DNA of 64,000 nucleotides from Antedon mediterranea (Eukaryota; Animalia; Echinodermata): the NCBI RefSeq assembly GCF_964355755.1, contig NC_092676.1:23888871-23952870 (forward strand). Reading direction: 5' to 3'. The translations under genes and the position numbers were made by a program. The notes under the pieces were generated by a model. The model made no database searches. It saw only the letters and a program-made list of their open reading frames with translations, and was not told where the DNA came from. Positions 14,782-48,300 of the stretch are shown piece after piece. The stretch's first letter is position 1; each line of letters opens with the position of its first letter.

Positions 14782-15087
14782 TTTCTCTGTTCTTTAATTA
14801 GAGGAACATGCACAAAAGATGAGATTCTAGCCTATGATGCTAGACTGCATACTCGAACTACATTTACATTCGCACAAAAACCAAAGCGCCCTCAAAATTA
14901 ACTTTGAAGCATGTTTGTCACTCCACCAGCCAGAGAACGCTTGTGTCAAGCTAGCCAACAATAAGCCAGCCAACAATAAGCCAGCCCACTTTTATTTTTT
15001 CCAGCCAACAATAACTATGAAACGCCGTTTGTGCATTCTTTACATTTTCATTGTTACTTATGGCTTTTATGATATTAGGAATTAAAT

Positions 15088-18000
15088 ATTTGTGAGAAAA
15101 ACGGCGGATTGTTCCTGGGATTCACTTGGTGGGATTATACTAGGGTACCCCCTTAGTCGTCCAGTATAAGTTAGAGTGGGACCACTGGTCCCGTTTACTC
15201 AGCCCTCATCACTAAAATTTGAGTGTAACTCAATTACGATTTTTAAAATATAGTTAAATTTGAAACTGTATTTGTGAGAAAATGGCGGATTGTTCCTGGG
15301 AGTCACTTGGTGGGATTATACTAGGGTACCCCCTTAGTCGTCCAGTATAAGTTAGAGTGCGACCACTGGTCCTGTTTACTCAGCCCTCATCTTAAAAATT
15401 TGAGTGTAACTCAATTACAATTTTTAAAATATAGTTAAATTTGAAACTGTATTCGTGAGAAAATGGCGGATTGTTCCTGGGAGTCACTTGGTGGGATTAT
15501 ACTAGGGTACCTCCTTAGTCGTACAGTATAAGTTAGAGTGGGACCACTGGTACCGTTTACTCAGCCCTCACCTTTTAAATTTGAGTGTAACTCATTTACG
15601 ATTTAAAAAATATAGTGAAATTTGATACTGTATTTATGAGAAAATGGCGGATTGTTCCTGGGAGTCACTTGGTGGGATTATACTAGGGTACCTCCTTAGT
15701 TGTCCAGTATAAGTTAGAGTGGGACCACTGGTCCCGTTTACTCAGCCCTCATCTTTAAAATTTGAGTGTAACTCATTTACGATTTTTAAAATATAGTGAA
15801 ATTTGATACTGTATTTGTGAGAAAACAGCGGATTGTTCCTGAGAGTCACTTGGTAGGATTATACTAGGGTACCCCCTTAGTCGTCCAGTATAAGTTAGAG
15901 TGGGACCACTGGTCCCGTTTACTCAGCCCTCATCTTTTAAATTTGAGTGTAACTCATTTACGATTTTTAAAATATAGTGAAATTTGAAACTGTATTTGTG
16001 AGAAAACGGCGGATTGTTCCATAGAGTCACTTGGTGGGATTATACTAGGGTGCATCCTTAGTCGTCGAGTATAAGTTAGAGTGGGACCACTGGTCCCGTT
16101 TACTCAGTCCTCATCTTTTAAATTTGAGTGTAACTCATTTACGATTTTAAAAATATAGTGAAATTAGATACTGTATTTGTGAGAAAACGGCGGATTGTTC
16201 CTGGGAGTCACATGGTGGGATTATACTAAGGTACGTCCTTAGTCGTCCAGTATAAGTTAGAGTGCGACCACTGGTTCCGTTTACTCAGTCCTCATCTTTT
16301 AAATTTGAGTGTAACTCAATTACGGTAAAAAAATTTTAAAATATAGTGAAAATTGATACTGTATTTGTGAGAAAATGGCGGATTGTTCCTGGGAGTCACT
16401 TGGTGGGATTATACTAGGGTACCTCCTTAGTTGTCCAGTAGAAGTTAGAGTGGGACCACTGGTCCCGTTTACTCAGCCTTCATCTTTTAAATATGAATGT
16501 AACTCATTTACGATTTAAAAAATATAGTGAAATTAGATACTGTATTTGTGAGAAAACGGCGGATTGTTCCTGGGAGTCACATGGTGGGATTATACTAAGG
16601 TACGTCCTTAGCCGTCCAGTATAAGTTAGAGTGCGACCATTGGTTCCGTTTACTCAGCCCTCATCTTTTAAATTTGAGTGTAACTCAATTACGGTAAAAA
16701 ATTTTTAAAATATAGTGAAAATTGATACTGTATTTGTGAGAAAATGGCGGATTGTTCCTGGGAGTCACTTGGTGGGATTATACTAGGGTACCTCCTTAGT
16801 TGTCCAGTAGAAGTTAGAGTGGGACCACTGGTCCCGTTTACTCAGCCCTCATCTTTTAAATATGAATGTAACTCATTTACGATTTAAAAAATATAGTGAA
16901 ATTTGATACTGTATTTGTGAGAAAATGGCGGATTGTTCATGGGAGTCACTTGGTGGGATTATACTAGGGTACCTCCTTAGTTGTCCAGTATAAGTTAGAG
17001 TGGGACCACTGGTCCCGTTTACTCAGCCCTCATCTTTAAAATTTGAGTGTAACTCATTTACGATTTTTAAAATATAGTGAAATTTGATACTGTATTTGTG
17101 AGAAAACGGCGGATTGTTCCTGAGAGTCACTTGGTGGGATTATACTAGGGTACCCCCTTAGTCGTCCAGTATAAGTTAGAGTGGGACCACTGGTCCCGTT
17201 TACTCAGCCCTCATCTTTTAAATTTGAGTGTAACTCATTTACGATTTTTAAAATATAGTGAAATTTGATACTGTATTTGTGAGAAAACGGCGGATTGTTC
17301 CTGAGAGTCACTTGGTGGGATTGTACTAGGGTGCATCCTTAGTCGTCCAGTATAAGTTAGAGTGGGACCACTTGTCCTGTTTACTCAGCCCTCATCTTTT
17401 AAATTTGAGTGTAACTCATTTACGATTTTAAAAATATAGTGAAATTAGATACTGTATTTGTGAGAAAACGGCGGATTGTTCCTGGGAGTCACATGGTGGG
17501 ATTATACTAAGGTACGTCCTTAGTCGTCCAGTATAAGTTAGAGTGCGACCACTGGTTCCATTTACTCAGCCCTCATCTTTTAAATTTGAGTGTAACTCAA
17601 TTACGGTAAAAAAATTTAAAATATAGTGAAAATTGATACTGTATTTGTGAGAAAATGGCGGATTGTTCCTAGGAGTCACTTGGTGGGATTATACTAGGGT
17701 ACCTCCTTAGTTGTCCAGTAGAAGTTAGAGTGGGACCACTGGTCCCGTTTACTCAGCCCTCATCTTTTAAATATGAATGTAACTCATTTACGATTTAAAA
17801 AATATAGTGAAATTTGATACTGTATTTGTGAGAAAATGGCGGATTGTTCCTGGGAGTCACATGGTGGGATTATACTAAGGTAGGTCCTTAGTCGTCCAGT
17901 ATAAGTTAGAGTGCGACCACTGGTTCCGTTTACTCAGTCCTCATCTTTTAAATTTGAGTGTAACTCAATTACGGTAAAAAAATTTTAAAATATAGTGAAA

Positions 18001-20560
18001 ATTGATACTGTATTTGTGAGAAAATGGTGGATTGTTCCTGGGAGTCACTTGGTGGGATTATACTAGGGTACCTCCTTAGTTGTCCAGTAGAAGTTAGAGT
18101 GGGACCACTGGTCCCGTTTACTCAGCCTTCATCTTTTAAATATGAATGTAACTCATTTACGATTTAAAAAATATAGTGAAATTAGATACTGTATTTGTGA
18201 GAAAACGGCGGATTGTTCCTGGGAGTCACATGGTGGGATTATACTAAGGTACGTCCTTAGCCGTCCAGTATAAGTTAGAGTGCGACCACTGGTTCCGTTT
18301 ACTCAGCCCTCATCTTTTAAATTTGAGTGTAACTCAATTACGGTAAAAAAATTTTAAAATATAGTGAAAATTGATACTGTATTTGTGAGAAAATGGCGGA
18401 TTGTTCCTGGGAGTCACTTGGTGGGATTATACTAGGGTACCTCCTTAGTTGTCCAGTAGAAGTTAGAGTGGGACCACTGGTCCCGTTTACTCAGCCCTCA
18501 TCTTTTAAATATGAATGTAACTCATTTACGATTTAAAAAATATAGTGAAATTTGATACTGTATTTGTGAGAAAATGGCGGATTGTTCATGGGAGTCACTT
18601 GGTGGGATTATACTAGGGTGCATCCTTAGTCGTCGAGTATAAGTTAGAGTGGGACCACTGGTCCCGTTTACTCAGCCCTCATCTTTTAAATTTGAGTGTA
18701 ACTCATTTACGATTTTAAAAATATAGTGAAATTAGATACTGTATTTGTGAGAAAACGGCGGATTGTTCCTGGGAGTCACTTGGTGGGATTATACTAAGGT
18801 ACGTCCTTAGTCGTCCAGTATAAGTTAGAGTGCGACCACTGGTTCCGTTTACTCAGTCCTCATCTTTTAAATTTGAGTGTAACTCAATTACGGTAAAAAA
18901 ATTTTAAAATATAGTGAAAATTGATACTGTATTTGTGAGAAAATGGCGGATTGTTCCTGGGAGTCACTTGGTGGGATTATACTAGGGTACCTCCTTAGTT
19001 GTCCAGTAGAAGTTAGAGTGGGACCACTGGTCCCGTTTACTCAGCCTTCATCTTTTAAATATGAATGTAACTCATTTACGATTTAAAAAATATAGTGAAA
19101 TTAGATACTGTATTTGTGAGAAAACGGCGGATTGTTCCTGGGAGTCACATGGTGGGATTATACTAAGGTACGTCCTTAGCCGTCCAGTATAAGTTAGAGT
19201 GCGACCACTGGTTCCGTTTACTCAGCCCTCATCTTTTAAATTTGAGTGTAACTCAATTACGGTAAAAAAAATTTAAAATATAGTGAAAATTGATACTGTA
19301 TTTGTGAGAAAATGGCGGATTGTTCCTGGGAGTCACTTGGTGGGATTATACTAGGGTACCTCCTTAGTTGTCCAGTAGAAGTTAGAGTGGGACCACTGGT
19401 CCCGTTTACTCAGCCCTCATCTTTTAAATATGAATGTAACTCATTTACGATTTAAAAAATATAGTGAAATTTGATACTGTATTTGTGAGAAAATGGCGGA
19501 TTGTTCATGGGAGTCACTTGGTGGGATTATACTAGGGTACCTCCTTAGTTGTCCAGTATAAGTTAGAGTGGGACCACTGGTCCCGTTTACTCAGCCCTCA
19601 TCTTTAAAATTTGAGTGTAACTCATTTACGATTTTTAAAATATAGTGAAATTTGATACTGTATTTGTGAGAAAACGGCGGATTGTTCCTGAGAGTCACTT
19701 GGTGGGATTATACTAGGGTACCCCCTTAGTCGTCCAGTATAAGTTAGAGTGGGACCACTGGTCCCGTTTACTCAGCCCTCATCTTTTAAATTTGAGTGTA
19801 ACTCATTTACGATTTTTAAAATATAGTGAAATTTGATACTGTATTTGTGAGAAAACGGCGGATTGTTCCTGAGAGTCACTTGGTGGGATTATACTAGGGT
19901 GCATCCTTAGTCGTCCAGTATAAGTTAGAGTGGGACCACTTGTCCTGTTTACTCAGCCCTCATCTTTTAAATTTGAGTGTAACTCATTTACGATTTTAAA
20001 AATATAGTGAAATTAGATACTGTATTTGTGAGAAAACGGCGGATTGTTCCTGGGAGTCACATGGTGGGATTATACTAAGGTACGTCCTTAGTCGTCCAGT
20101 ATAAGTTAGAGTGCGACCACTGGTTCCATTTACTCAGCCCTCATCTTTTAAATTTGAGTGTAACTCAATTACGGTAAAAAAATTTAAAATATAGTGAAAA
20201 TTGATACTGTATTTGTGAGAAAATGGCGGATTGTTCCTAGGAGTCACTTGGTGGGATTATACTAGGGTACCTCCTTAGTTCTCCAGTAGAAGTTAGAGTT
20301 GGACCACTGGTCCCGTTTACTCAGCCCTCATCTTTAACGTTTGAGTGTAACTCAATTACGATTAATATTTTAAAATATAGTGAAATTTGATACTGTATTT
20401 GTGAGAAAATGGCGGATTGTTCCCGAGAGTCACTTGGTGGGATTATACTAGCGTACCTCCTTAGTTGTCCAGTTTAAGTTAGAGTGGGACCACTGGTCCC
20501 GTTTACTCAGCCCTTATCTTTAAAATTTGAGTGTAACTCAATTACGATTAATATTTTAAA
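15088..20560 (+). repeat. 181-bp satellite, left arm of foldback A (~30 copies)
   Basis: Tandem 181-187 bp units containing the palindromes GGGACCACTGGTCCC and AGGGTACC. Confidence 0.97.
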
Positions 20561-23500
20561 GATGAGGGCTGAGTAAACGGGACCAGTGGTCCCACTCTAA
20601 CTTATACAGGATGACTAAAGAGGTACTCTAGTATAATCCCACCAAGTGACTCTCAGGAACAATACGCCGTTTTCTCACAAATACAGTATCAAATTTCACT
20701 ATATTTTAAAAATCGTAAATGAGTTACACTCAAATTTTAAAGATGAGGGCTGAGTAAACGGGACCAGTGGTCCCACTCTAACTTATACTGGACGACTAAG
20801 GGTGTACCCTAGTATAATCCCACCAAGTGACTCTCAGGAACAATCCGCCGTTTTCTCACAAATACAGTTTCAAATTTCACTATATTTTAAAAATCGTAAA
20901 TGAGTTACACTCAAATTTTAAAGATGAGGGCTGAGTAAACGGGACCAGTGGTCCCACTCTAACTTATACTGGAAAACTAAGAGGGTACCTTAGTATAATC
21001 CCACCAAGTGACTCCCAGGAACAATCCGCCATTTTCTCACAAATACAGTATCAAATTTCACTATATTTTAAAAATTTTATCGTAATTGAGTTACACTCAA
21101 ATTTAAAAGATGAGGGCTTAGTAAACGGGACCAGTGGTCCCACTCTAACTTATACTGGACGACTAGGGAGGCACCGTAGTATAATCCCACCAAGTGACTC
21201 TCAGGAACAATCCGCCGTTTTCTCACAAATACAGTATCAAATTTCACTATATTTTAAAATATTAATCGTAATTGAGTTACACTCAAACGTTAAAGATGAG
21301 GGCTGAGTAAACCGGACCAGTGGTCCCACTCTAACTGATACTGGACGACTAAGGGGGTAACCTAGTATAATCCCACTAAGTGACTCCCAGGAACAATCCG
21401 CCATTTTCTCACAAATACAGTATCAAATTTCACTATATTTTAAAATATTAATCGTAATTGAGTTACACTCAAACGTTAAAGATGAGGGCTGAGTAAACGG
21501 GACCAGTGGTCCCACTCTAACTTATACTGGACAACTGAGGAGGTACCCTAGTATAATCCCACAAAGTGACTCCCAGGAACAATCCGCCATTTTCTCACAA
21601 ATACAGTATCAATTTTCACTATATTTTAAAATTTTTTATCGTAATTGAGTTACACTCAAATTTAAAAGATGAGGGCTGAGTAAACGAAACCAGTGGTCGC
21701 ACTCTAACTTATACTGGACAACTAAGGACGTACCTTAGTATAATCCCACCATGTGACTCCCAGGAACAATCCGCCGTTTTCTCACAAATACAGTATCTAA
21801 TTTCACTATATTTTTAAAATCGTAATTGAGTTACACTCAAATGTTAAAGATGAGGGCTGAGTAAACGGGACCAGTAGTCCCACTCTAACTTATACTGGAC
21901 AACTAAGGAGGTACCCTAGTATAATCCCACCAAGTGACTCTCAGGAAAAATCCGCCGTTTTCTCACAAATACAGTATCACATTTCACTATATTTTAAAGA
22001 TCATAAATGAGTTAAACTCAAATTTTAAAGATGAGGGCTGAGTAAACGGGACCAGTGGTCCCACTCTAATTTATACTGGACAACTAAGGAGGTACCCTAG
22101 TATAATCCCACCAAGTGACTCCCAGGAACAATCCGCCATTTTCTCACAAATACAGTATCAAATTTCACTATATTTTTTTAATCGTAAATGAGTTACACTC
22201 AAATTTAAAAGATGAGGGCTGAGTAAACAGTACCAGTGGTCCCACTCTAACTTATACTGTACGAGTAAGGAGGTACCCTAGTATAATCCCACCAAGTGAC
22301 TCTCAGGAACAATCCGCCGTTTTCTCACAAATACAGTTTCAAATTTCACTATATTTTAAAAATCGTAAATGAGTTACACTCAAATTTTAAAGATGAGGGC
22401 TGAGTAAACGGGACTAGTGGTCCCACTCTAACTTATACTGGACGACTAAGGGGGTACCCTAGTATAATCCCACCAAGTGACTCCCAGGAACAATCCGCCA
22501 TTTTTCACAAATACAGTATCAAATTTCACTATATTTTAAAAATCGTAAATGAGTTACACTCAAATTTTAAAGATGAGGGCTGAGTAAACCGGACCAGTGG
22601 TCCCACTCTAACTTATACTGGACGACTAAGGGGGTAACCTAGTATAATCCCACCAAGTGACTCCCAGGAACAATCCGCCATTTTTACACAAATACAGTAT
22701 CAAATTTCACTATATTTTAAAATATTAATCGTAATTGAGTTACACTCAAATGTTAAAGATGAGGGCTGAGTAAACGGGACCAGTGGTCCCACTCTAACTT
22801 ATACAGGATGACTAAAGAGGTACTCTAGTATAATCCCACCAAGTGACTCTCAGGAACAATACGCCGTTTTCTCACAAATACAGTATCAAATTTCACTATA
22901 TTTTAAAAATCGTAAATGAGTTACACTCAAATTTTAAAGATGAGGGCTGAGTAAACGGGACCAGTGGTCCCACTCTAACTTATACTGGACGACTAAGGGT
23001 GTACCCTAGTATAATCCCACCAAGTGACTCTCAGGAACAATCCGCCGTTTTCTCACAAATACAGTTTCAAATTTCACTATATTTTAAAAATCGTAAATGA
23101 GTTACACTCAAATTTTAAAGATGAGGGCTGAGTAAACGGGACCAGTAGTCCCACTCTAACTTATACTGGACAACTAAGAGGGTACCCTAGTATAATCCCA
23201 CCAAGTGACTCCCAGGAACAATCCGCCATTTTCTCACAAATACAGTATCAAATTTCACTATATTTTAAAAATTTTATCGTAATTGAGTTACACTCAAATT
23301 TAAAAGATGAGGGCTGAGTAAACGGGACCAGTGGTCGCACTCTAACTTATACTGGACGACTAAGGACGTACCTTAGTATAACCCCACCATGTGACTCCGA
23401 GGAACAATCCGCCGTTTTCTTACAAATACAGTATCAAATTTCACTATATTTTTAAAATCGTAAATGAGTTACACTCAAATTTAAAAGATGAGGGCTTAGT

Positions 23501-26500
23501 AAACGGGACCAGTGGTCCCACTCTAACTTATACTGGAAAACTAAGAGGGTACCTTAGTATAATCCCACCAAGTGACTCCCAGGAACAATCCGCCATTTTC
23601 TCACAAATACAGTATCAAATTTCACTATATTTTAAAAATTTTATCGTAATTGAGTTACACTCAAATTTAAAAGATGAGGGCTTAGTAAACGGGACCAGTG
23701 GTCCCACTCTAACTTATACTGGACGACTAGGGAGGCACCGTAGTATAATCCCACCAAGTGACTCTCAGGAACAATCCGCCGTTTTCTCACAAATACAGTA
23801 TCAAATTTCACTATATTTTAAAATATTAATCGTAATTGAGTTACACTCAAACGTTAAAGATGAGGGCTGAGTAAACCGGACCAGTGGTCCCACTCTAACT
23901 GATACTGGACGACTAAGGGGGTAACCTAGTATAATCCCACTAAGTGACTCCCAGGAACAATCCGCCATTTTCTCACAAATACAGTATCAAATTTCACTAT
24001 ATTTTAAAATATTAATCGTAATTGAGTTACACTCAAACGTTAAAGATGAGGGCTGAGTAAACGGGACCAGTGGTCCCACTCTAACTTATACTGGACAACT
24101 GAGGAGGTACCCTAGTATAATCCCACAAAGTGACTCCCAGGAACAATCCGCCATTTTCTCACAAATACAGTATCAATTTTCACTATATTTTAAAATTTTT
24201 TATCGTAATTGAGTTACACTCAAATTTAAAAGATGAGGGCTGAGTAAACGAAACCAGTGGTCGCACTCTAACTTATACTGGACAACTAAGGACGTACCTT
24301 AGTATAATCCCACCATGTGACTCCCAGGAACAATCCGCCGTTTTCTCACAAATACAGTATCTAATTTCACTATATTTTTAAAATCGTAATTGAGTTACAC
24401 TCAAATGTTAAAGATGAGGGCTGAGTAAACGGGACCAGTAGTCCCACTCTAACTTATACTGGACAACTAAGGAGGTACCCTAGTATAATCCCACCAAGTG
24501 ACTCTCAGGAAAAATCCGCCGTTTTCTCACAAATACAGTATCACATTTCACTATATTTTAAAGATCATAAATGAGTTAAACTCAAATTTTAAAGATGAGG
24601 GCTGAGTAAACGGGACCAGTGGTCCCACTCTAATTTATACTGGACAACTAAGGAGGTACCCTAGTATAATCCCACCAAGTGACTCCCAGGAACAATCCGC
24701 CATTTTCTCACAAATACAGTATCAAATTTCACTATATTTTTTTAATCGTAAATGAGTTACACTCAAATTTAAAAGATGAGGGCTGAGTAAACAGTACCAG
24801 TGGTCCCACTCTAACTTATACTGTACGAGTAAGGAGGTACCCTAGTATAATCCCACCAAGTGACTCTCAGGAACAATCCGCCGTTTTCTCACAAATACAG
24901 TTTCAAATTTCACTATATTTTAAAAATCGTAAATGAGTTACACTCAAATTTTAAAGATGAGGGCTGAGTAAACGGGACTAGTGGTCCCACTCTAACTTAT
25001 ACTGGACGACTAAGGGGGTACCCTAGTATAATCCCACCAAGTGACTCCCAGGAACAATCCGCCATTTTTCACAAATACAGTATCAAATTTCACTATATTT
25101 TAAAAATCGTAAATGAGTTACACTCAAATTTTAAAGATGAGGGCTGAGTAAACCGGACCAGTGGTCCCACTCTAACTTATACTGGACGACTAAGGGGGTA
25201 ACCTAGTATAATCCCACCAAGTGACTCCCAGGAACAATCCGCCATTTTTACACAAATACAGTATCAAATTTCACTATATTTTAAAATATTAATCGTAATT
25301 GAGTTACACTCAAATGTTAAAGATGAGGGCTGAGTAAACGGGACCAGTGGTCCCACTCTAACTTATACAGGATGACTAAAGAGGTACTCTAGTATAATCC
25401 CACCAAGTGACTCTCAGGAACAATACGCCGTTTTCTCACAAATACAGTATCAAATTTCACTATATTTTAAAAATCGTAAATGAGTTACACTCAAATTTTA
25501 AAGATGAGGGCTGAGTAAACGGGACCAGTGGTCCCACTCTAACTTATACTGGACGACTAAGGGTGTACCCTAGTATAATCCCACCAAGTGACTCTCAGGA
25601 ACAATCCGCCGTTTTCTCACAAATACAGTTTCAAATTTCACTATATTTTAAAAATCGTAAATGAGTTACACTCAAATTTTAAAGATGAGGGCTGAGTAAA
25701 CGGGACCAGTAGTCCCACTCTAACTTATACTGGACAACTAAGAGGGTACCCTAGTATAATCCCACCAAGTGACTCCCAGGAACAATCCGCCATTTTCTCA
25801 CAAATACAGTATCAAATTTCACTATATTTTAAAAATTTTATCGTAATTGAGTTACACTCAAATTTAAAAGATGAGGGCTGAGTAAACGGGACCAGTGGTC
25901 GCACTCTAACTTATACTGGACGACTAAGGACGTACCTTAGTATAACCCCACCATGTGACTCCGAGGAACAATCCGCCGTTTTCTTACAAATACAGTATCA
26001 AATTTCACTATATTTTTAAAATCGTAAATGAGTTACACTCAAATTTAAAAGATGAGGGCTTAGTAAACGGGACCAGTGGTCCCACTCTAACTTATACTGG
26101 ACGACTAGGGAGGCACCGTAGTATAATCCCACCAAGTGACTCTCAGGAACAATCCGCCGTTTTCTCACAAATACAGTATCAAATTTCACTATATTTTAAA
26201 ATATTAATCGTAATTGAGTTACACTCAAACGTTAAAGATGAGGGCTGAGTAAACCGGACCAGTGGTCCCACTCTAACTGATACTGGACGACTAAGGGGGT
26301 AACCTAGTATAATCCCACTAAGTGACTCCCAGGAACAATCCGCCATTTTCTCACAAATACAGTATCAAATTTCACTATATTTTAAAATATTAATCGTAAT
26401 TGAGTTACACTCAAACGTTAAAGATGAGGGCTGAGTAAACGGGACCAGTGGTCCAACTCTAACTTATACTGGACAACTGAGGAGGTACCCTAGTATAATC

Positions 26501-29500: not shown

Positions 29501-30940
29501 ATGAGTTACACTCAAATTTTAAAGATGAGGGCTGAGTAAATGGGACCAGTGGTCCCACTCTAACTTATACTGGACGACTAAGGGGGTACCCTAGTATAAT
29601 CCCACCAAGTGACTCCCAGGATCAGGAACAATCCGCCATTTTTTCACAAATACAGTATCAAATTTCACTATATTTTAAAAATCGTAAATGAGTTACACTC
29701 AAATGTTAAAGATGAGTGCTGAGTAAACCGGACCAGTGGTCCCACTCTAACTTATACTGGACGACTAAGGGGGTAACCTAGTATAATCCCACCAAGTGAC
29801 TCCCAGGAACAATCCGCCATTTTCTCACAAATACAGTATCAAATTTCACTATATTTTAAAATATTAATCGTAATTGAGTTACACTCAAACGTTAAAGATG
29901 AGGGCTGAGTAAACGGGACCAGTGGTCCCACTCTAACTTATACTGGACAACTAAGGAGGTACCCTAGTATAATCCCACCAAGTGACTCCCAGGAACAATC
30001 CGCCATTTTCTCACAAATACAGTATCAAATTTCACTATATTTTAAAAATCGTAAATGAGTTACACTCAAATTTTAAAGATGAGGGCTGAGTAAACCGGAC
30101 CAGTGGTCCCACTCTAACTTATACTGGACGACTAAGGGGGTAACCTAGTATAATCCCACCAAGTGACTCCCAGGAACAATCCGCCATTTTCTCACAAATA
30201 CAGTATCAAATTTCACTATATTTTAAAATATTAATCGTAATTGAGTTACACTCAAACGTTAAAGATGAGGGCTGAGTAAACGGGACCAGTGGTCCCACTC
30301 TAACTTATACTGGACAACTAAGGAGGTACCCTAGTATAATCCCACCAAGTGACTCCAAGGAACAATCCGCCATTTTCTCACAAATACAGTATCAATTTTC
30401 ACTCTATTTTAAAAATTTTATCGTAATTGAGTTACACTCAAATTTAAAAGATGAGGGCTGAGTAAACGGGACCAGTGGTCGCACTCTAACTTATACTGGA
30501 CGACTAATGGGGTACCCTAATATAATCCCACCAAGTGAATCCCAGGAACAATCCGCCATTTTCTCACAAATACAATATCAATTTTCACTATATTTTAAAA
30601 ATTTTATCGTAATTGAGTTACACTCAAATTTAAAAGATGAGGGCTGAGTAAACGGAACCAGTGGTCGCACTCTAACTTATACTGAACGACTAAGGGGGTA
30701 CCCTAGTATAATCCCACCAAGTGACTCCCAGGAACAATCCGCCATTTTCTCACAAATACAGTTTCAAATTTAACTATATTTTAAAAATCGTAATTGAGTT
30801 ACACTCAAATTTTAAAGATGAGGGCTGAGTAAACGGGACCAGTGGTCCCACTCTAACTTATACTGGACGACTAAGGGGGTACCCTAGTATAATCCCACCA
30901 AGTGAATCCCAGGAACAATCCGCCGTTTTTCTCACAAATA
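20553..30940 (-). repeat. 181-bp satellite, inverted right arm of foldback A (~57 copies)
   Basis: Reverse complement of the same monomer; followed by an inverted copy (30941-31051) of the unique subterminal sequence 14976-15087. Confidence 0.97.
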
Positions 30941-31327
30941 TTTAATTCCTAATACCATAAAAGCCATAAGTAACAATGAAAATGTAAAGAATGCACAAAC
31001 GGCGTTTCATAGTTATTGTTGGCTGGAAAAAATAAAAGTGGGCTGGCTTATGAGCTATATTGTGTAGTCGTTTTTTGATAACTGAGAACTATCAGTGTGT
31101 ATCATCCTCGTACATAACTGTTTCTTAGTTGTAATAAAGATCACATTATTATAACATCTAGCATGTTATTATAATATATAAATTTATAGGTACCAATACT
31201 AATATTTTTATTTTCAAAAAAATTCGATAAGTATTTTAATAATACTAAAACAACATTCTTAATATAACAAATGATATGTAGTACTACTAAATCAATGTCT
31301 AATGCATAAAGGACTATGTACAGTATT

Positions 31328-34300: not shown

Positions 34301-35200
34301 TTAATAATAATCTATATCACATTTTGGGATATGATTAGTGTAGTCATAATTTGATAACTGAGCACGCATCTTTCAATATCTACATCATCAATAATTATTA
34401 TTAATATCTTATATCACATTGTTTGATATGATCAGTGTAGTCATAATTTGATAACTGAGCACGCATCTTTAAATATCTACATCATCAATAATTATTAATA
34501 ATAATCTATATCACATTGTGGGATATGATCAGTGTAGTCATAATTTGATAACTGAGCACGCATCTTTAAATATCTACCTCATCAATAATTATTATTAAGA
34601 TCTTATATCACAATGTTGGATACGATTAGTGTAGTCAGAATTTGATAACTGAGCACGCATCTTTAAATATCTACATCATCAATAATTATTAATAATAATC
34701 TATATCACATTGTGGGATATGATCAGTGTAGTCATAATTTGATAACTGAGCACGCATCTTTTAATATCTACCTCATCAATAATTATTATTAATATCTTAT
34801 ATCACATTGTTGGATATGATCAGTGTAGTCAGAATTTGATAACTGAGCACGCATCTTTCAATATCTACCTCATCAATAATTGTTATTAATATCTTATATC
34901 ACATTGTTGGATATGATCAGTGTAGTCAGAATTTGATAACTGAGCACGCATCTTTTAATATCTATTTCATCAATAATATTATTAATACTCTACATCACAC
35001 TGTTGGATATAATCAGTGTAGTCATAATTTGATAACTGAGCACGCATCTTTAAATATCTACCTCATCAATAATTATTATTAATAATCTATGTCACATTGT
35101 TGGATATGATCTGTATATTCATAATTTGTTATAACGCATCTTTTAATATCTACCTAATCAATAATAATTATTAATACTTAATGTTGGATATGATCAGTGT
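31328..35200 (+). repeat. 97-bp AT-rich satellite, left arm of foldback B (~40 copies)
   Basis: Unit ATATGATCAGTGTAGTCATAATTTGATAACTGAGCACGCATC...CACATTGTTGG, period 97 (e.g. 31423 to 31520). Confidence 0.96.
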
Positions 35201-35879
35201 GATTTTGTTAGATTTACTGTATACAAGAGATCGAGTCGATGGATTTTGAAAATGTGTTATTCTTTTGTTCCTAATTACCCTATTGATTTGTATCCGTTTG
35301 CTGTTTAAATTTATACTTTTAAGAACGCATCGTTTATGATGAACGTGTGCCGTTGTAAAAATAAAAATATTCCATATCTTTTTATGTTTGATATGTATTG
35401 TAGGGGCCATCATGAGACATGCTTTGGCTTCTATTGAGGGTCCCAGTTCTTCTTAACAGAATAAATGTGCAGTGAATGAATAATTTGATAAATGAGGACG
35501 TGTGTTTTAACATCGATCTATTCAGACCGTAATACTCTTCCAGAAATGATATGTTGCTATAATAGGCCTATGACAAATTTCCATTACATTAATAATTCAA
35601 TTAAGATTTGAAATGTGTCAGAAATACTAAAGAAATCCAGTAATCTTATTGATTAATAATTATTTATACCATTTCTGATGAACGAACAGAAAACTAAACT
35701 TGCAGCCAATCAAAAAGCTGCTGTACTGTATAAGTAGGGAATTTTAAGTAGGAGTTGTTTTAAATGTCATTGGTCTCGGCTAATCAGTTATTGCCATTTG
35801 ACTATGATAGGCATCTTTATTACCAAACAATATTAAAATGTAATGATTTCCTTCACTTTTTACAACCTAGTTTGTGTTT

Positions 35880-38800
35880 TAAAATGTCAATTTTGGATAA
35901 ATTTACAGATTTTACTATTTAAACTGCGTAAACTTAATGCTAACTTTAAAAAAACACCCACAAACATCATCCAAACAACTTAATATTGATTATACCACTA
36001 CAAGAACTATAAAAGAGGACAATTTATGAAATAATTTCATTGAAATAGCTCTAGGTTTGAATTTTTAGGGTAAAAGATGTCAATTTTGGATAAATTTACA
36101 GATTTTGCCATGTAAACTGTGCAAACTTTAAAAAAACACCCCACAAACATCATCCAAACCACTTAATATTGAGTATACCACTACTAGAACTATAAAAAAG
36201 GACAATTTATGAAATAATTTTATTGAAATAGCTCTAGGTTTGAATTTTTAGGGTAAAAAATGTCAATTTTGGATAAATTTACAGATTTTACCATGTAAAC
36301 TGCGTAAACTTAATGCAAACTTTTAAAAAACACCCACAAACATCATCCAAACAACTTAATATTGATTATACCACTACTAGAACTATAAAAGAGGACAATT
36401 TATGAAATAATTTTATTGAAATAGCTCTGGTTTGAATTTTTAGGGTAAAAAATGTCAATTTTGGATAAATTTACAGATTTTGCCATGTAAACTGCGTAAA
36501 CTTAATGCTAACTTAACAAAAACACCCCACAAACATCATTCAAACAACTTAATATTGATTATATCACTACTAGAACTGTAAAAGAAGAGAATTTTTGAAA
36601 TCAATTTATTGAAATAGCTCTAAGTTTGACTTTTTAGGGTGAAAAATGTCAATTTTGGATAAATTTACAGATTTTACCATGTAAACTGCGTAAACTTAAT
36701 GCTAACTTAACAAAAACACCCCACAAACATCATCCAAACAACTTAATATTGATTATACCACTACTAGAACTATAAAAGAGGACAATTTATGAAATCAATT
36801 TATTGAAATAGCTCTAAGTTTGACTTTTTAGGGTGAAAAATGTCAATTTTGGATAAATTTACAGATTTTACCATTTAAACAGCGTAAACTTAATGCAAAC
36901 TTTAAAAAAACACCCACAAACATCATCCAAACCACTTAATATTGATTATACCACTACAAGAACTATAAAAGAGGACAATTTATGAAATAATTTTATTGAA
37001 ATAGCTCTAGGTTTGAATTTTTAGGGTAAAAGATGTCAATTTTGGATAAATTTACAGATTTTGCCATGTAAACTGTGCAAACTTTAAAAAAACACCCCAC
37101 AAACATCATCCAAACCACTTAATATTGAGTATACCACTACTAGAACTATAAAAGAGGACAATTTATGAAATAATTTTATTGAAATAGCTCTAGGTTTGAA
37201 TTTTTAGGGTAAAAAATGTCAATTTTGGATAAATTTACAGATTTTACCATGTAAACTGCGTAAACTTAATGCAAACTTTTAAAAAACACCCACAAACATC
37301 ATCCAAACAACTTAATATTGATTATACCACTACTAGAACTATAAAAGAGGACAATTTATGAAATAATTTTATTGAAATAGCTCTGGTTTGAATTTTTAGG
37401 GTAAAAAATGTCAATTTTGGATAAATTTACAGATTTTGCCATGTAAACTGCATAAACTTAATGCTAACTTAACAAAAACACCCCACAAACATCATTCAAA
37501 CAACTTAATATTGATTATATCACTACTAGAACTGTAAAAAAAGAGAATTTTTGAAATCAATTTATTGAAATAGCTCTAAGTTTGACTTTTTAGGGTGAAA
37601 AATGTCAATTTTGGATAAATTTACAGATTTTACCATGTAAACTGCGTAAACTTAATGCTAACTTAACAAAAACACCCCACAAACATCATCCAAACAACTT
37701 AATATTGATTATACCACTACTAGAACTATAAAAGAAGACAATTTATGAAATCAATTTATTGAAATAGCTCTAAGTTTGACTTTTTAGGGTGAAAAATGTA
37801 AATTTTGGATAAATTTACAGATTTTACCATTTAAACAGCGTAAACTTAATGCAAACTTTAAAAAAACACCCACAAACATCATCCAAACCACTTAATATTG
37901 ATTATACCACTACAAGAACTATAAAAGAGGACAATTTATGAAATAATTTTATTGAAATAGCTCTAGGTTTGAATTTTTAGGGTAAAAGATGTCAATTTTG
38001 GATAAATTTACAGATTTTGCCATGTAAACTGTGCAAACTTTAAAAAAACACCCCACAAACATCATCCAAACCACTTAATATTGAGTATACCACTACTAGA
38101 ACTATAAAAGAGGACAATTTATGAAATAATTTTATTGAAATAGCTCTAGGTTTGAATTTTTAGGGTAAAAAATGTCAATTTTGGATAAATTTACAGATTT
38201 TACCATGTAAACTGCGTAAACTTAATGCAAACTTTTAAAAAACACCCACAAACATCATCCAAACAACTTAATATTGATTATACCACTACTAGAACTATAA
38301 AAGAGGACAATTTATGAAATAATTTTATTGAAATAGCTCTGGTTTGAATTTTTAGGGTAAAAAATGTCAATTTTGGATAAATTTACAGATTTTGCCATGT
38401 AAACTGCGTAAACTTAATGCTAACTTAACAAAAACACCCCACAAACATCATTCAAACAACTTAATATTGATTATATCACTACTAGAACTGTAAAAAAAGA
38501 GAATTTTTGAAATCAATTTATTGAAATAGCTCTGAAGTTTGACTTTTTAGGGTGAAAAATGTCAATTTTGGATAAATTTACAGATTTTACCATTTAAACT
38601 GCGTAAACTTAATGCAAACTTTAAAAAAACACCCACAAACATCATCCAAACAACTTAATATTGATTATACCACTACAAGAACTATAAAAGAGGACAATTT
38701 ATGAAATAATTTCATTGAAATAGCTCTAGGTTTGATTTTTTAGGGTGAAAAATGTAAACTTTGGATAAATTGACAGATTTTACCATGTAAACTGTGCAAA

Positions 38801-39750
38801 CTTTAAAAAAAACACCCCACAAACATCATCCAAACAACTTAATATTGATTATACCACTACTAGAACTATAAAAGAGGACAATTTATGAAATCATTTTATT
38901 AAAATAGTTCTAGGTATAAATTGACACATTTTACCATGTAAACTGTGCAAACTTTTAAAAAACACCCCACAAACATCATCCAAACCACTTAATATTGATT
39001 ATATCATTATTAGAACTATAAAAGAGGACAATTTATGAAATAATTTTATTGAAATGGCTCTAAGATTTTTTTAGGAGTGAAAAATGTCAATTTTGGATAA
39101 TTGACAGATTTTACCATGTAAACTGCGTAAACTTAATTAAAAAATACCCCACAAACATTATTCAAACAATTGAATACTGATTATACCACTACTAGAACTA
39201 TAAAAGAAGACAATTTATGAAATCATTTTATTAAAATAGTTCTAGGTTTGACATTTTTGGGGTGATTATGAAATAATTTTATTGAAATAGCTCTAGGAAT
39301 AAATTGACACATTTTACCATGTAAACTGTGCAAACTTTTAAAAAACACCCCACAAACATCATCCAAACCACTTTGATTATATCATTATTAGAACCATAAA
39401 AAGAGGACAATTTATGAAATAATTTTATTGAAATGGCTCTAAGATTTTTTTAGGAGTGAAAAATGTCAATTTTGGATAATTGACAGATTTTACCATCTAA
39501 ACTGCGTAAACTTAATTAAAAAATACCCCACAAACATCATTCAAACAATTGAATACTGATTATACCACTACTAGAAATATAAAAGAAGACAATTTATAAA
39601 ATCATTTTATTATTAAATAGCTCTAGGTTTGACATTTTTGGGGTAAAAAACCACTTAATATTGATTATCACTAAAACTATAAAAGAAGACAACTTATGAA
39701 ATGATTTTATTGAAATAGGTCAAAGTTTGACCTTTTGGATAAATTGAACT
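35880..39750. repeat. ~193-bp satellite (~20 copies) with 956-bp pentamer higher-order repeat
   Basis: Units of 183-194 bp; the AAGATGTC/short variant recurs at 36077, 37033 and 37989; array decays after ~38900. Confidence 0.95.
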
Positions 39751-40625
39751 TTACAATGCAAAAAAGGCCATCTGCAATCATCCTTCAAACCACTTATTAT
39801 ATTAAGACAATATTAATATTTGAAGCAGATATAAAATGATGCATGCTCAGTTATCAAATGACTAGGCCTACACTGATCATATTTGATGGTATATAGACAA
39901 TTAATATTAATTATTGTTGAGGTAGTTCAAACTATGATTACACTGATCATATCCAAAATTGTGATATAGAATATTATTAATAGTTATGGAAAAGATAGAT
40001 ATTAAAAAACTAAACAGATCATATCCAACAGTTTGATATAGATTATTAATATTAATTAATGATGATGCAGATATTAAAAGATTTTTGCTCAGTTATCAAT
40101 TTATGACTACACTGATCATATCCAACTATGTGATATAGATTATTAATAATAATTATTGATGAAATAGATATTGAAAGATGCATGCTCAGTTATCAAATTA
40201 TGACTACACTAATCATATCCAACATTGTGATATAGATTATTAATAATAATTATTGATGAGGTAGATATTAAAAGATGCATGCTCAGTTATCAAACTATGA
40301 CTACACTGATCATATCCAACATTGTGATATAGGATATTATTAATAGTTATTGATAAGGTAGATATTAAAAAACCAAACAGATCATATCCAACAGTGTAAT
40401 ATAGATTATTAATATTAATTATTAATGAGGTAGATATTCTTCTTCTTTATTGTATCAAACAAAAACAATTTCAATACAAAAGGTAGCCAAGGTATAGCCA
40501 AAGCTAATCAAGCTTGGTACCTTTTATCTTAAACTAACTTAAGCTACGAAATTAACAAATGAATAACAGAACTTAAAAGAAAATAAAAATTTGATAACGT
40601 CAAAAACCAAACAAAAAATGTTGAA

Positions 40626-41719
40626 TCTATATTATAAGTGAGAGAGTTTGTCTGTTTGTCTGTTTGTTCGTTATACAAAATTTTGTTACTGCACATAATC
40701 TTACATATGGGGTATCAAAATGACCGCAATTGTACCGGGAATGTTCTAAGCTATATTTCAACATCATCCGCCACCTAGGATCCAAGTTAGGGACCAAAAT
40801 GTGGTCAAAACCCCCACTTTCGATGTTTGTTCGTTATAAAAATTTCTGTGTCTGCACGTAACCATACGTATGGGGTATCAAAATGATGGCAATTGTACCC
40901 GGAAGGTTTTAAACTACATTTTAAAAAATTCCCCCGACTCCTGGGGTTTTTGTGGAATGGGTGGGGGGGGGGGGGGTGGTTGTGTGGTGGCTTGTGATGT
41001 CATTTTTGCTAGGGCTCGGGGTTGTAGGCTATCGAATTGTAAAATTATACTACAAAAGTTTTACAGTATTTGAATTATCCTCAGCAAGGCGTTTGGGGAA
41101 ATATAGATATAGCTATACATATTTCATTCATTAAACAATATGACACCTATTCAATTACACATTAACTGCCACTGAGGGATTATGGGTTGGGAGTGATAAT
41201 AATATAAATTGTACTGGAACCGGCTTCAACAGATCACCCAGTGTATCTGGCGTGTGTTTTTTGTAGAGGGAGGAGGAGCGAAAATACTAGCGTAATGAAG
41301 TAGCCTATATGATTGGATTGTACTAGGAAAAGTTACTAAATTTGAACTGTCCAGGGGAGGAGTTAAGGTTTGTTGATGGTGGCTGGGGTGGTGAAAGGAG
41401 AAAGAAGGCTGGGTGCCCGCAGTATCTAAATTACAAATTTTAATTATCAGCCAATATGACACCTATTCATTTACACAATTTACAACGTACTACAACCATT
41501 ATTAGACCCATCGTAGTTATGAATACTCCTCTCAATTCGAAGCTTAGGTTGAATTGAATTTGTCCATCACTGGGAAGATTTTGTTTTTAAGAAAGAGTAT
41601 GGGGTGTTGTTGAGGGGTCGATGTTGGTGAGTATAGACAGATACTGGCGTCGGGTGTTATGTACTGAGAAGGCTGTAAACTAATTTTGAAACCCGCCCTG
41701 GGGCGGGTATAATTGCTAG
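40626..41719 (+). mobile_element. Non-autonomous Helitron, copy 1 (internally deleted)
   Basis: 5' TCTATATTATA, GTTT/GTCT microsatellite, 3' hairpin ACCCGCCC-TG-GGGCGGGT, terminal CTAG; preceded by A. Confidence 0.9.
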
Positions 41720-43174
41720 TCTATATTATAAGTGAGAGAGTTTGTCTGTTTGTTTGTTTGTCTGTTTGTTCGTTATACAAAATTTTGTTACTGCACATAA
41801 TCTTACATATGGGGTATCAAAATGACCGCAATTGTACCGGGAATGTTCTAAGCTATATTTCAACATCATCCGCCACCTAGGATCCAAGTTAGGGACCAAA
41901 ATGTGGTCAAAACCCCCACTTTCGATGTTTGTTCGTTATAAAAATTTCTGTGTCTGCACGTAACCATACGTATGGGGTATCAAAATGATGGCAATTGTAC
42001 CCGGAAGGTTTTAAACTACATTTAAAAAAATTCCCCCGACTCCTGGGGTTTTTGTGGAATGGGTGGGGGGGGGGGGGTGGTTGTGTGGTGGTTTGTGATG
42101 TCATTTTTGCTAGGGCTCGGGGTTGTAGGCTATCGAATTGTAAAATTATACTACAAAAGTTTTACAGTATTTGAATTATCCTCAGCAAGGCGTTTGGGGA
42201 AATATAGATATAGATATACATATTTTATTCATTAAACAATATGACACCTATTCAATTACACATTTAGCAAAGTACTTTAACCATATCCAGCTATTTATTG
42301 GTCTCTTGGATTGCCTCATTACAGACATCCATACCTGTGTGAACATACACATGTTGTTTACTGTTACTGTGTTCAACTACATCACCAATCCTCCAAGGAA
42401 AAAAACGTACATTGTGGGAGAGTGGGGTTGGGAGATAGGGTTTGGGAGTTTGGTTTCAGGAGAGAGTGGGGATTTTGCTTACACCAGAATTGTGGTTGGA
42501 AACTTTTAAAGTATTTAATCATCCCTGGGAAGCGGATGGGAGTTTGGGGTGGGGATGTACATGTAGGCCTATCACCATGACCGAAACTGTATTTGGAATG
42601 TTTTAAACTACATTTGAAAACTGCCACTGAGGGATTATGGGTTGGGAGTGATAATAATATAAATTGTACTGGAACCGGCTTCAACAGATCACCCAGTGTA
42701 TCTGGGGTGTGTTTTTTGTAGGGGGAGGAGGAGCGAAAATACTAGCGTAATGAAGTAGCCTATATGATTGGATTGTACTAGGAAAAGTTACTAAATTTGA
42801 ACTGTCCAGAGGAGGAGTTAAGGTTTGTTGATAGTGGCTGGGGTGGTGAAAGGAGAAAGAAGGCTGGGTGCCCGCAGTATCTAAATTACAAATTTTAATT
42901 ATCAGCCAATATGACACCTATTCATTTACACAATTTACAACGTACTACAACCATTATTAGACCCATCGTAGTTATGAATACTCCTCTCAATTCGAAGCTT
43001 AGGTTGAATTGAATTTGTCCATCACTGGGAAGATTTTGTTTTTAAGAAAGAGTATGGGGTGTTATTGAGGGGTGGATGTTGGTGAGTATAGACAGATACT
43101 GGCGTCGGGTGTTATGTACTGAGAAGGCTGTAAACTAATTTTGAAACCCGCCCTGGGGCGGGTATAATTGCTAG
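41720..43174 (+). mobile_element. Non-autonomous Helitron, copy 2
   Basis: Same termini and hairpin; exact CTAG|TC head-to-tail junction; followed by T; no TSD. Confidence 0.9.
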
Positions 43175-45319
43175 TAATAAATAAATAACATAACATAAAG
43201 TGCTGTATGTACTATGCTGTAATAAACAAAACCATATCAGTTCAATAGATAATATCTGATGAATTCACAATATATAAAACATTGTAAATTATAGATTATT
43301 CTTTTATATACTTAAATAAAAGTAATTCTAAAGATGTATGCTCAGTTATCAAATTATGACTACAATGATCATATCCAACAATGTGATATAAATTATTAAT
43401 AATAATTATTGATGAAATAGATATTGAAAGATGCGTGCTCAGTTATCAAATTATGACTACACTGATCATATCCAACATTGTGATATAGGATATTATTAAT
43501 AGTCATTGATAAGGTAGATATTAAAAGATGCATGCTCAGTTATCATATTATGACTACACTGATCATATTGAACAATGCAATATAGATTATTAATATTAAT
43601 TATTGATGAGGTAGATATTAAAAGATGCATGCTCAGTTATCAAATTCTGACTACACTGATCATATCCAACAATGTGATATAGATTATTAATAATAATTAT
43701 TGAAAGGTAGATATTAAAAGATGCGTGCTCAGTTATCAAATTATGACTACACTGATCATATCGAACAATGTGATATAGATTATTAATATTAATTATTGAT
43801 GAGGTAGATATTAAAAGATGCGTGCTCAGTTATCAAATTCTGACTACACTGATCATTATCGAACAATGTGATATAAGATATTAATAATAATTATTGATGA
43901 GGTAGATATTAAAAGATGCGTGTTCAGTTATCAAATTCTGACTACACTGATCATATCCAACGTGATATAATATATTATTAATAGTTATTGATAAGGTATA
44001 TATTAAAAAACTAAACAGATCATATCCAACAATGTGATATAGGTTATTAATATTAATTAATGATGATGTAGATATTAAAAGATTATTGCTCAGTTATCAG
44101 ATTATGACTACACTGATCATAACCAACAATGTGATATAGATTATTAATAATAATTATTGATGAAATAGATATTGAAAGATGGGTGCTCAGTTATAAAATT
44201 ATGACTACACTGATCATATCCAACATTGTGATATAGGATATTATTAATAGTTATTGATAAGGTATATTAAAAGATGCGTGCTGTTATTAAATTATGACTA
44301 CACTGATCATATCGAACAATGTGATATAGATTATTAATATTAATTATTGATGAGGTAGATATTAAAAGATGCGTGCTCAGTTATCAAATTATGACTACAA
44401 TGATCATATCCAACAATGTGATATAAATTATTAATAATAATTATTGATGAAGGAAATAGATATTGAAAGATGTGTGCTCAGTTATCAAATTATGACTACA
44501 CTAATCATATCCAACATTGTGATATAGGATATTATTAATAGTCATTGATAAGGTATATATTAAAAGATGCGTGCTCAGTTATCAAATTCTGACTACACTG
44601 ATCATATCGAACAATGTGATATATTATGATATTAATATTAATTATTGATGAGGTAGATATTAAAAGATGCGTGCTCAGTTATCAAATTATGACTAACACT
44701 GATCATATCCTACATTGTGATATAGGACATTATTAATAGTTATTGATAAGGTAGTTATTAAAAGATGTGTGCTCAGTTATCAAATTTTGACTACAAAGAT
44801 CATATCCAACATTGTGATGTAGATTTATATTAATATTAATTATTGATGATGTAGATATTATAAGATGCATGCTAAGTTATCAAATTGTTACTACACGGAT
44901 CATATTTGATATTGTGATTGATGATATATTCATATAAAGAGTGTACAATACTCACAGTATTTTTTAATCCATCCACATGAAGAAGAGACACAAGAAGAGT
45001 TGTTTGAAATTGTGAAGCCTCACAACCTTACTAATTGTGATGACATTTAATATAATATTACAGCCATACACAAACAGTAAGGTAGTTAGGGTCACTACAA
45101 TCTATTAAAATAATTAACATTAATTTAACTGGAAACATTGTTAATTATCAGTTTGAGTTTGACTTTTGTCTCTTTTGTTGTAGAATTGAATCTCTGTTTA
45201 TCCATTGCTTTCAACCTGAAAATAAACAGGCCTAATACCTTGGCATTAGCAATGAAATCAACTTACACACTGATGAATCTTAATACTCCTACCTACCTAT
45301 CTAATATTTTATATAGATA

Positions 45320-46075
45320 GGCTGTCTATGACCCCCCAGCCTATCCCTAGCTAGGCCTATGCCTCTCTAGACCATTCTGCTGGCTAGCTAGCAAGGCCCT
45401 AGGCCTAGTCCTATAATTAATAGCACAGGTCTCATATAGATAGGCCTAGCTAGAGTGTTTAGACTGAGCCTGGTTATATGCCTATTTATTTAACTAGGAC
45501 TAGGCAGGCCTAATCAGCCTAAACTAAGGCCTAATAAACTAGTCTAGGCCCTAACTAGAATACATAGAGCTAGCTAGTTAGGCAGCCTAGGCCTAGCTAC
45601 TTATTAGCTAGTAAGTAGGCCTAGCTAGCTAGCCTACCAGTTCCCTAGTAGGGCCTAACCAGGTGGGCCTACTAGCCTAGCCTACTACTCTAGCTAGGCT
45701 AGATCTTTCTATTTCTAGGCCTAGCTAGACAAGGCTAGCCAGTAGGCCTAGTAGTACTAGGCCTACCTAGTTTTTAGGCCTAAACTATTAGCTAGAGTAG
45801 AGAGATGCTAGCCTAACTAGGCCTAGGCCCTAGCTAGCTAGCTAGGCCTAGACTAGGCTAGCCTATAGGCTATAGGCCTGCCCTCTACTAGCTAGGCCTA
45901 ATCTGCCCTTTTTGGAGGCTAAAATATTGTCTGAAATAAGCTATGACCTACAAATATAGCTTAACTATCTGTTTAAGGGTGACACTGATGATGGGTAATC
46001 AATAAAATATGCTTCTAAATCTACCTTTTTGGCTTGCAATCATAATATCCAGTCTAGCCTAGGCCTAGGCCTGCA
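45320..46075. repeat. TAGGCC/CTAG-rich low-complexity tract (similar tracts at 14460-14700 and 46650-46860)
   Basis: Dense AGGCCT, CTAG and TAGCTA short palindromes. Confidence 0.8.
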
Positions 46076-46572
46076 CGGATCAGGTAGCGAAACGAACGAA
46101 GTGAGAGCAGAGAGCTGAGGAGGAGGAGGCCTCCTCCTCGGCCTAGGTTTCAGGCAGAAAAGAACATCTTGAGTTTGTGTAATTATATATCTATTTATAG
46201 TTATTTTAAAATATATCCCTAACATTTAAAAAATTATATATATTACTGACAATTAATTCTAAGAATGATACTCTATCTAATGATAAAATCAATTAAATGT
46301 ATTTTCCGTACGAAATTAATTATATACGAGGATGGCATAAGTGATAGTTCTCTGTTATCAAAAAACAACTACATACTATACCTGGGCTTATTGTTGGCTG
46401 GCTTATTGTTGGCTAGCTTGACACAAGCCAGAGAACAGCATGTTGTACAAAAACACCACCACCACGTCTCTCTCACACTCACAGTACTGTGTTGGTTGTG
46501 ATAGGCCTAAATAATTTTTTATTTTAAAGGTACTTTCAGCAATTTTATTCTGTAGCTAGCCCTACCATAATA

Positions 46573-48260: not shown

Positions 48261-48300
48261 GTTTTTATATATAATAAGTAAGTATACCTACTTATATAGT

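Follow-up and report, generated by a model that had tools for sequence, protein, structure and literature searches.

We analysed a 64,000-bp stretch of the genome of the crinoid Antedon mediterranea (assembly GCF_964355755.1, contig NC_092676.1, positions 23,888,871 to 23,952,870 of the forward strand; hereafter the window, in whose coordinates all positions are given), in which a 31.5-kb insertion separates two genes that lie head to head. In the gene on the left, on the minus strand, the 5'-most seen exon is spliced to one that is RS-rich, and further downstream exons encode a G-patch and a dsRBD, an architecture that we take to be that of SON. This 5'-most seen exon (14705-14843, with the ATG at 14781) is delimited by a spliced contig from public run X4, which begins at 14843, 88 bp from the duplication that borders the insertion; because this contig is spliced, X4 contains RNA. 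On the right, on the plus strand, are the coding exons of S-adenosylmethionine decarboxylase (AdoMetDC; 49640-53541). As a splice acceptor precedes the first of them, the AdoMetDC promoter should lie somewhere within 46437-49640.

The insertion is bounded by a perfect 44-bp inverted pair (14939-14982 and 46385-46428; self-BLAST E = 2 × 10−15), flanked by an 8-bp target-site duplication, CAGAGAAC, whose left (14931-14938) and right (46429-46436) copies match on the plus strand, on which there is no further copy. The direct match around this duplication reaches 11 bp because the flank ends like the terminal inverted repeat (TIR); a duplication of 9 or 11 bp was excluded by the terminus at 14939 in contigs and by the terminal pairing. 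Within each end, GCCAACAATAAG occurs twice, with a period of 15 bp. Tandem Repeats Finder identified three satellites, with units of 181 bp, 97 bp and ~193 bp, which make up ~25.9 of the 31.5 kb (82%, with approximate borders), and the insertion contains two inverted structures and nested inserts. Among the internal open reading frames (ORFs) of at least 100 amino acids none was transposase-like, these being satellite or chance frames, and 0 of 13 internal frames scored above the Pfam cut-off; Pfam also gave no match for a protein-like frame at 44925-45047 or an exon-like stretch at 45128-45262, and Rfam gave 0 matches over 30900-47000. Comparison of ten element parts with the window outside 14939-46428 returned no match. 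The perfect TIRs with their repeated motif, the 8-bp duplication, the three satellites in two inverted structures with nested elements, and the lack of a visible transposase had all been noted in a first reading of the sequence (the original prediction), and all were confirmed.

The insertion is, however, not the single composite transposon with 44-bp TIRs that the original prediction had made of these parts, but a pair of non-coding foldback DNA transposons, element 1 (16,150 bp) and element 2 (15,333 bp), the latter nested in the right end of the former. The left head of element 1 (14939-15086, plus strand, 148 bp) comprises the terminus GCTTG, three copies of the motif CCAACAATAA and a unique spacer; in 4 of 4 runs, position 14939 is where contigs begin and where they branch. 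The inverted copy of this head starts at 30904, where it overlaps the outermost satellite letters, ends at 31051 in GGCTTAT, and resumes at 46385 with a second GGCTTAT and an outer part of 44 bp (46385-46428) that retains two of the three motifs and the terminus. When 31052-46384 and one GGCTTAT were removed in silico, the two ends of element 1 agreed at 171 of 172 bases. The two GGCTTAT copies (31045-31051 and 46385-46391) are an exact 7-bp duplication, for which the chance is ~6 × 10−5 at a fixed junction, and reading it as 8 bp requires a mismatch. Between them, element 2 (31052-46384) has inverted ends of its own (65 bp, 83% identity; z = 24.8 for the TIR pair). The removal test and the separate TIRs of element 2 thus define two families, which differ in their TIRs and in their duplications (8 bp vs. 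7 bp). The 44-bp TIR is the stub of the right head of element 1 that was left outside element 2, its length being set by the point at which element 2 inserted; the true inverted head of element 1 is 148 bp plus satellite.

We compared contigs from 6 of the 11 public runs listed with two junction stretches. A contig of 647 bases from run X2 (depth 221.2) represents the empty site: its bases 1-230 lie on 46662-46430 and its bases 241-647 on 14914-14512, and it reads from one flank through one target copy into the right flank. Run X1, from the same sample, contains a 642-base equivalent. Since an empty version exists in two runs of one sample, the insertion is young and polymorphic, which bears out the predicted recent insertion and supplies the empty allele that had been proposed as a check on it. 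The sample may come from another individual or from the assembled one, which would then be heterozygous. The empty haplotype and the window disagree at 3 positions over 403 bases, and several small insertions or deletions (indels) also set them apart, some adjoining the target, differences that make an ancestral empty site appear more likely than a fresh excision.

It is probable that element 2 landed after element 1 in the same promoter region, and that both came by cut-and-paste with transposases encoded elsewhere; this estimate assumes that both elements favour open promoter DNA. By analogy to Muta1 and Galileo, a transposase supplied in trans would bind the terminus and the short repeated motifs of each end, excise the element regardless of the content between the ends, and reinsert it, producing a duplication of 8 bp in the case of element 1 and of 7 bp in that of element 2. 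For Galileo, a THAP domain is described as binding the TIR repeats (PMC3688188), and for Muta1, the terminal motif and one repeat per end are described as sufficient for excision, with more repeats raising it (PMC5499845). Unequal exchange or slippage would expand the subterminal units into satellite arms, each arm on its own, and internal deletion would account for the loss of the middle together with the transposase gene. The satellite arrays likely came as cargo, because their monomers differ by ~8% while the ends of element 1 are identical at 171 of 172 bases, and because the empty site carries no satellite.

Several points weigh against arrival in two steps. The order of events is reconstructed, junction contigs with only ~30 matching bases are invisible in the comparison, and the evidence from loose contig ends, given below, comes from among the matches listed. 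A random landing of element 2 within 44 bp of the end of element 1 is unlikely unless both elements prefer promoters. Each duplication length rests on one site, and the ends of element 2 may be off by one, since its terminal bases are unpaired (GAGCT on the left, CAGGT on the right). No transposase was found in this copy, and neither end could be tied to one. Contig depth serves as an approximate measure, and the contig comparison was confined to the junctions. Finally, the small indels next to the target make an old excision footprint a possible alternative to an ancestral empty site.

A less likely course of events is that element 2 entered a copy of element 1 elsewhere and that the 31.5-kb composite then jumped here by means of the left head and the 44-bp right end. 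This would need one event at the site instead of two; the terminus survives in the outer 44 bp along with two of the three repeated motifs, in line with the minimum for excision described for Muta1 (PMC5499845), and a single 8-bp duplication encloses the whole, the empty allele lacking any of it. However, no loose end was found at 14975/14976 or 14982/14983 among the 24 of 32 matches listed, and contigs over 14939-15002 were unbranched in X1, X2 and X4, which implies that the majority of element 2 ends lack a join to an element 1 terminus. Moreover, transposition efficiency is said usually to drop with length (PMC3688188). No nest junction was found in other samples among the matches listed, in which short junction contigs would escape detection. 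More doubtful still is the wider proposition that the nest moved as a unit, the terminal 44 bp of element 1 sufficing, and that housekeeping promoters, as well as the ends of other such elements, are targets of these giant foldbacks. If the nest did move as a unit, a second transposon, a piece of a long interspersed nuclear element (LINE) and two Helitrons would ride along, with ~26 kb of three unrelated satellites per jump; if promoters are targeted, segregating satellite blocks would split bidirectional promoters such as that of SON/AdoMetDC.

Two-step arrival and transposition of the nest both presuppose two elements. That there is instead a single family, with the 44-bp TIRs as its defining ends and three satellites in two palindromes as its normal body, is very unlikely. 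The perfect 44-bp match and the single outer duplication would suit such a family, as would the depths of some contigs, in which the element 1 head and the right end of element 2 stand near 2:1, as a repeated composite would give. Relative to the flank (empty-site) contig, the depth of the element 1 head was 47, 26, 54 and 44 times as high in X1 contigs and 41 and 49 times in X2 contigs, and that of the element 2 right end was 24.5, 20.8, 24.5 and 9.2 times as high in four X2 contigs. Contig depth gives a rough guide and no copy count, and we read these values as tens of ends; both families are multi-copy. Against a single family stand the inner 7-bp duplication and the 171/172 continuity across it, and also the other copies. 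Uninterrupted element 1 heads appear among the matches listed as loose ends at 46385, in three contigs of X2 and two of X4. At the end of element 2, an X4 contig ends at 46384, and an X9 contig (from organism C) matches up to 46385 and leaves 273 letters unmatched. Because a nearby variant can also end a contig, the X4 end is weak evidence by itself. Of the proposal of a non-autonomous TIR family that moves satellites, what survives is a real, recent insertion of a non-autonomous TIR transposon that brings satellite arrays into gene-rich DNA, with ends that are multi-copy, while the 31.5-kb composite is not supported as the architecture of the family.

The element 1 head also occurs in organism B, a related species (X6), and the right end of element 2 occurs in organism B (X8) and, more diverged, in organism C (X9). 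Similar sequence lies directly outside the element 1 terminus in two samples of organism B (X6 and X8; window positions 14935-14939 and 46429), one such X6 contig having ~19-fold the depth of the flank. There, element 1 may be located in an amplified repeat, or it may prefer a target. In metagenome contigs, the terminal 20-mer of element 1 and a 22-base motif of the element 2 TIR had 0 matches each. An 18-mer had 1 match in viral contigs, which was set aside as chance, since the match stops right after it.

An assembly artefact, in which fold-back chimeric reads or repeat misjoins created the palindromes, is similarly improbable. It gains something from the fact that no compared contig spans the insertion or matches the filled junction of the window, and from an exact duplication in the right arm of element 1, described below, which could be an over-expanded repeat and makes the array lengths uncertain. 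On the other hand, a misjoin would not produce two clean duplications together with an empty allele in which both flanks are joined, and the arms themselves are not mirror images. Tandem-repeat calls place the left arm, a 181-188-bp satellite of ~30 monomers (29.9 copies), at 15087-20549 on the plus strand, and the right arm, the same 181-bp satellite inverted in ~57 monomers (56.7 copies), at 20553-30940 on the minus strand; the arms adjoin at 20549/20553, around a fold centre (20550-20552) with no middle domain. The monomers adjoining this centre are identical at only 131 of 138 positions, so the arms are not mirror copies, and identity in register from the centre is 88-95%. Mean monomer identity is 92.1% in the left arm, 92.9% in the right arm and 91.8% across arms, and identical monomer pairs number 0 of 1624 across arms, whereas comparisons inside the arms gave 7 of 406 and 24 of 1540. 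The 85 monomers comprise 59 distinct sequences, and only the outermost monomer is in register between the arms at 98%. Mirror reads were ruled out on these grounds. Least credible of all is that two foldbacks sharing the 44-bp TIR inserted side by side and lost the inner TIR pair as a hairpin: the 31051/31052 junction does join an inverted left end to sequence like a right subterminal region, but the exact 7-bp duplication would be unexplained, and terminus-to-head joins are seen in other copies instead of the predicted terminus-to-element-2 joins.

Each arm of element 1 contains a recent duplication of 14 monomers of its own, of 2568 bp at 98.2% identity in the left arm and exact across 2604 bp, with a period of 2564, in the right arm; the latter might be an assembly over-expansion. 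The two duplications (16213-20549 and 20934-26101), which are independent, have near-equal periods (2568 and 2564 bp) and differ in monomer order; either coincidence or a favoured expansion unit could be at work. The 181-bp unit had no clear homology to either head or to the other satellites (best z = 3.6). A low-depth X1 contig at 14945 contains another element 1 head, in which two copies of a 7-bp TIR stretch flank a perfect palindrome of 18 bp; this may be a second case of an event within a TIR that gave a 7-bp duplication.

The arms of element 2 are built from the 97-bp satellite, whose consensus is identical in both. The left TIR (31052-31117, plus strand) is followed by a left arm of ~40 monomers (31327-35217, plus strand; array 31327-35176, 39.8 copies), and the middle (35218-39750, plus strand) consists of a 660-bp unique stretch and ~20 units of the 183-193-bp satellite (array 35881-39644). 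The right arm (39809-44938, minus strand) is broken at 40438/43330; Tandem Repeats Finder gives three inverted blocks, with inverted 97-bp arrays at 40009-40370 and 43330-44905. Beyond it lie a CTAG-rich, non-coding, multi-copy unique region (44939-46319) and the right TIR (46320-46384, minus strand), whose terminus reads CAGGT inward. The first 125 bp of element 2 align to the 97-bp satellite (z = 6.7 vs. 60 shuffles), the left TIR being a diverged unit of it, and the 97-bp satellite therefore likely grew from a TIR unit. A corresponding link to a TIR was sought for the 181-bp and 193-bp units and none was found, nor was a TIR or duplication found around the 193-bp block.

The interruption of the right arm (40439-43329) has the structure of a LINE-like 3' fragment (~340 bp, minus strand, with AATAAA and a (GAA)n tail and no duplication), itself split by a head-to-tail pair of non-autonomous Helitrons (40626-43174, plus strand), whose copies are 97.8% and 98.9% identical and the second of which has ~350 extra bases at 42265-42618. 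Helitrons have a 5' TC, a 3' hairpin and CTAG, and insert between A and T with no duplication of the target; taken as a whole, the pair shows these termini, the GC hairpin and the A/T insertion without duplication. Both labels are based on terminal structure and known hallmarks, the 3' hairpin being also noted in a Repbase account (PMC4455052). Within the right unique region, 45300-46150 is, with 109 matches, richer in CTAG/TAGG/CCTA than any other kilobase of the window; it resembles the host DNA beside both insertion flanks and has minus-strand splice-like signals and no ORF, and may represent a promoter and 5' untranslated region, either captured or relic. The X4 contigs over the right end of element 2 are unspliced.

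Both elements work like known foldbacks, and the architecture has already been described in beetles and flies. They have inverted repetitive arms (a 148-bp head and arms of ~5.5 and ~10.4 kb in element 1; a 65-bp TIR and inverted 97-bp arrays in element 2), with a duplication and an empty site for element 1 and a 7-bp duplication and intact heads elsewhere for element 2, and they form dispersed multi-copy families (ends at 9-54 times the flank-contig depth, a rough, contig-based measure). Elements of the P superfamily have a CA terminus at both ends, to be set beside the CAGGT right end and GAGCT left end of element 2, and the hAT terminus is (C/T)AG. Element 2 has CAG at one end and a 7-bp duplication; element 1 has an 8-bp duplication but starts with GCTTG and so departs from hAT. 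Repbase is described as sorting elements that are non-autonomous according to their terminal sequence and the length of their duplication, and hAT families with 7-bp duplications are mentioned in the same source (PMC4455052). The duplications of MULEs are given as 8-11 bp and those of Rehavkus as 9 bp (PMC6446971). Element 1 falls inside the MULE range and element 2 outside it (one site each), and the 9-bp length of Rehavkus is matched by neither the 8 nor the 7 bp found here, a 9-bp reading breaking the terminal pairing of element 1. Merlin has 5'-GG termini and 8-9-bp duplications (PMC8101967), which the termini GC, GA and CA do not fit. The tested features thus permit MULE membership for element 1 and speak against it for element 2, and both elements depart in a tested feature from Rehavkus and from Merlin. 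An autonomous MULE would encode a DDE transposase, and the Rehavkus transposase has a PHD finger; this copy contains no coding sequence for either. That element 1 uses a MULE/Rehavkus-type transposase is somewhat favoured; for element 2, a P/Galileo-type transposase is plausible, falling a little short of that standing, and a hAT-type one is the weaker candidate. The foldback affinity suggested in the original prediction accordingly stands, while its MULE part fits element 1 only, where it remains a guess, and fails for element 2 with its 7-bp duplication.

We compared the two elements with published systems. Rehavkus-like elements of Tribolium are, like the elements here, foldbacks whose inverted termini are satellite arrays, for which transposition is proposed as a route of spread, including near genes; they carry TfSat06, TfSat15, TfSat23 and TfSat25, in satellite termini sometimes longer than 11 kb (PMC12581902). 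The predicted novelty of the kind, and the view that such elements are typically far smaller, do not hold against these reported lengths. The Tribolium elements keep a central part with Repbase similarity, whereas element 1 has no middle, and nesting of one element in another, seen here, was not met for them in the parts of that account drawn on (PMC12581902). Transposon nesting as such is treated as common (PMC12628747). Tetris of Drosophila virilis, with its TIR-220 satellite, is likewise a non-coding foldback with a flanking domain followed by tandem repeats in the TIR; it is described as having 8-10-bp duplications and no autonomous copy found, as assigned to Mutator by duplication length only, and as having seeded a satellite (PMC4079207). 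Its TIRs are at most 1,735 bp, with inner and middle domains, in contrast to the arms of ~5.6 and ~10.5 kb of element 1 (PMC4079207). Muta1 (Aedes) and Tm1 (Meloidogyne) are MULE foldbacks with, like element 1, a terminal motif and short subterminal repeats, and Tm1 has duplications of 8-10 bp; both are small with known transposases, and kilobase satellite arms were not met in the parts of these sources drawn on, whereas the arms of element 1 are kilobases long (PMC5499845, PMC3169594). The cichlid centroid is centromeric and differs in structure from the elements here (PMC13652916).

For element 2, Galileo is the best model. This Drosophila member of the P superfamily has 7-bp duplications, matched by GGCTTAT of element 2 (one site), and long TIRs with internal tandem repeats, which are reported to vary independently between ends and to bind transposase, many copies consisting of two TIRs only (PMC3573991, PMC3688188). 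The TIRs of Galileo, however, are 0.5-1.3 kb long with two or three repeats, and its transposase is known, whereas the TIR match of element 2 covers 65 bp at 83% with unpaired terminal bases (PMC3573991, PMC3688188). No THAP or P sequence was found in this copy of element 2. The TU elements of the sea urchin Strongylocentrotus purpuratus reportedly have 8-bp duplications, a length of ~3 kb and a non-repetitive inner domain, and their outer domain reportedly consists of tandem repeats of 15 bp, in which they would resemble the head of element 1. TU elements are cited as foldbacks (PMC4079207). We found no publication that joins echinoderm, foldback, transposon and satellite or that covers these crinoid repeats, in a search that left subscription journals and repeat databases outside. 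The two crinoid families are probably uncatalogued, although Repbase, Dfam or bioRxiv supplements may already contain them.

Elsewhere in the window, a Brachyury-like T-box gene (57075-59700) is a fast-evolving crinoid copy: its exon shares 62-68% identity with the other T/TBX19 proteins listed from echinoderms and chordates, 80% with an Anneissia japonica protein and 99% with an Antedon mediterranea protein, the last two values placing the host among the comatulid crinoids, in or near the genus Antedon. A short, partly palindromic, MITE-like repeat is dispersed over at least 6 places (125-262, 3240-3490, 4143-4288, 4872-5002, 8297-8416 and 53578-53710). Tandem arrays outside the insertion have units of ~83 bp (1944-2254), ~72 bp (7388-7742) and ~198 bp (62368-63123), and a 225-bp direct repeat with 84% identity lies in or near AdoMetDC (52019-52243 and 54701-54925).

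Published cases argue for transposon-borne spread of satellites from structure and distribution; here, there are filled and empty versions of one site, with ~26 kb of satellite (82% of the insertion) present where another haplotype has none. Transposons thus likely hauled kilobases of satellite DNA between two housekeeping genes, and one of the satellite units, that of 97 bp, would be a copy of the TIR of its own element. The insertion lies 88 bp from the 5'-most seen base of the SON-like transcript and moves the SON-like gene 31.5 kb from AdoMetDC. With the architecture itself already known, the useful part of the finding is this filled and empty pair at a promoter: the two alleles form a natural pair in which to examine whether the arrival of a satellite block seeds silencing or alters expression.

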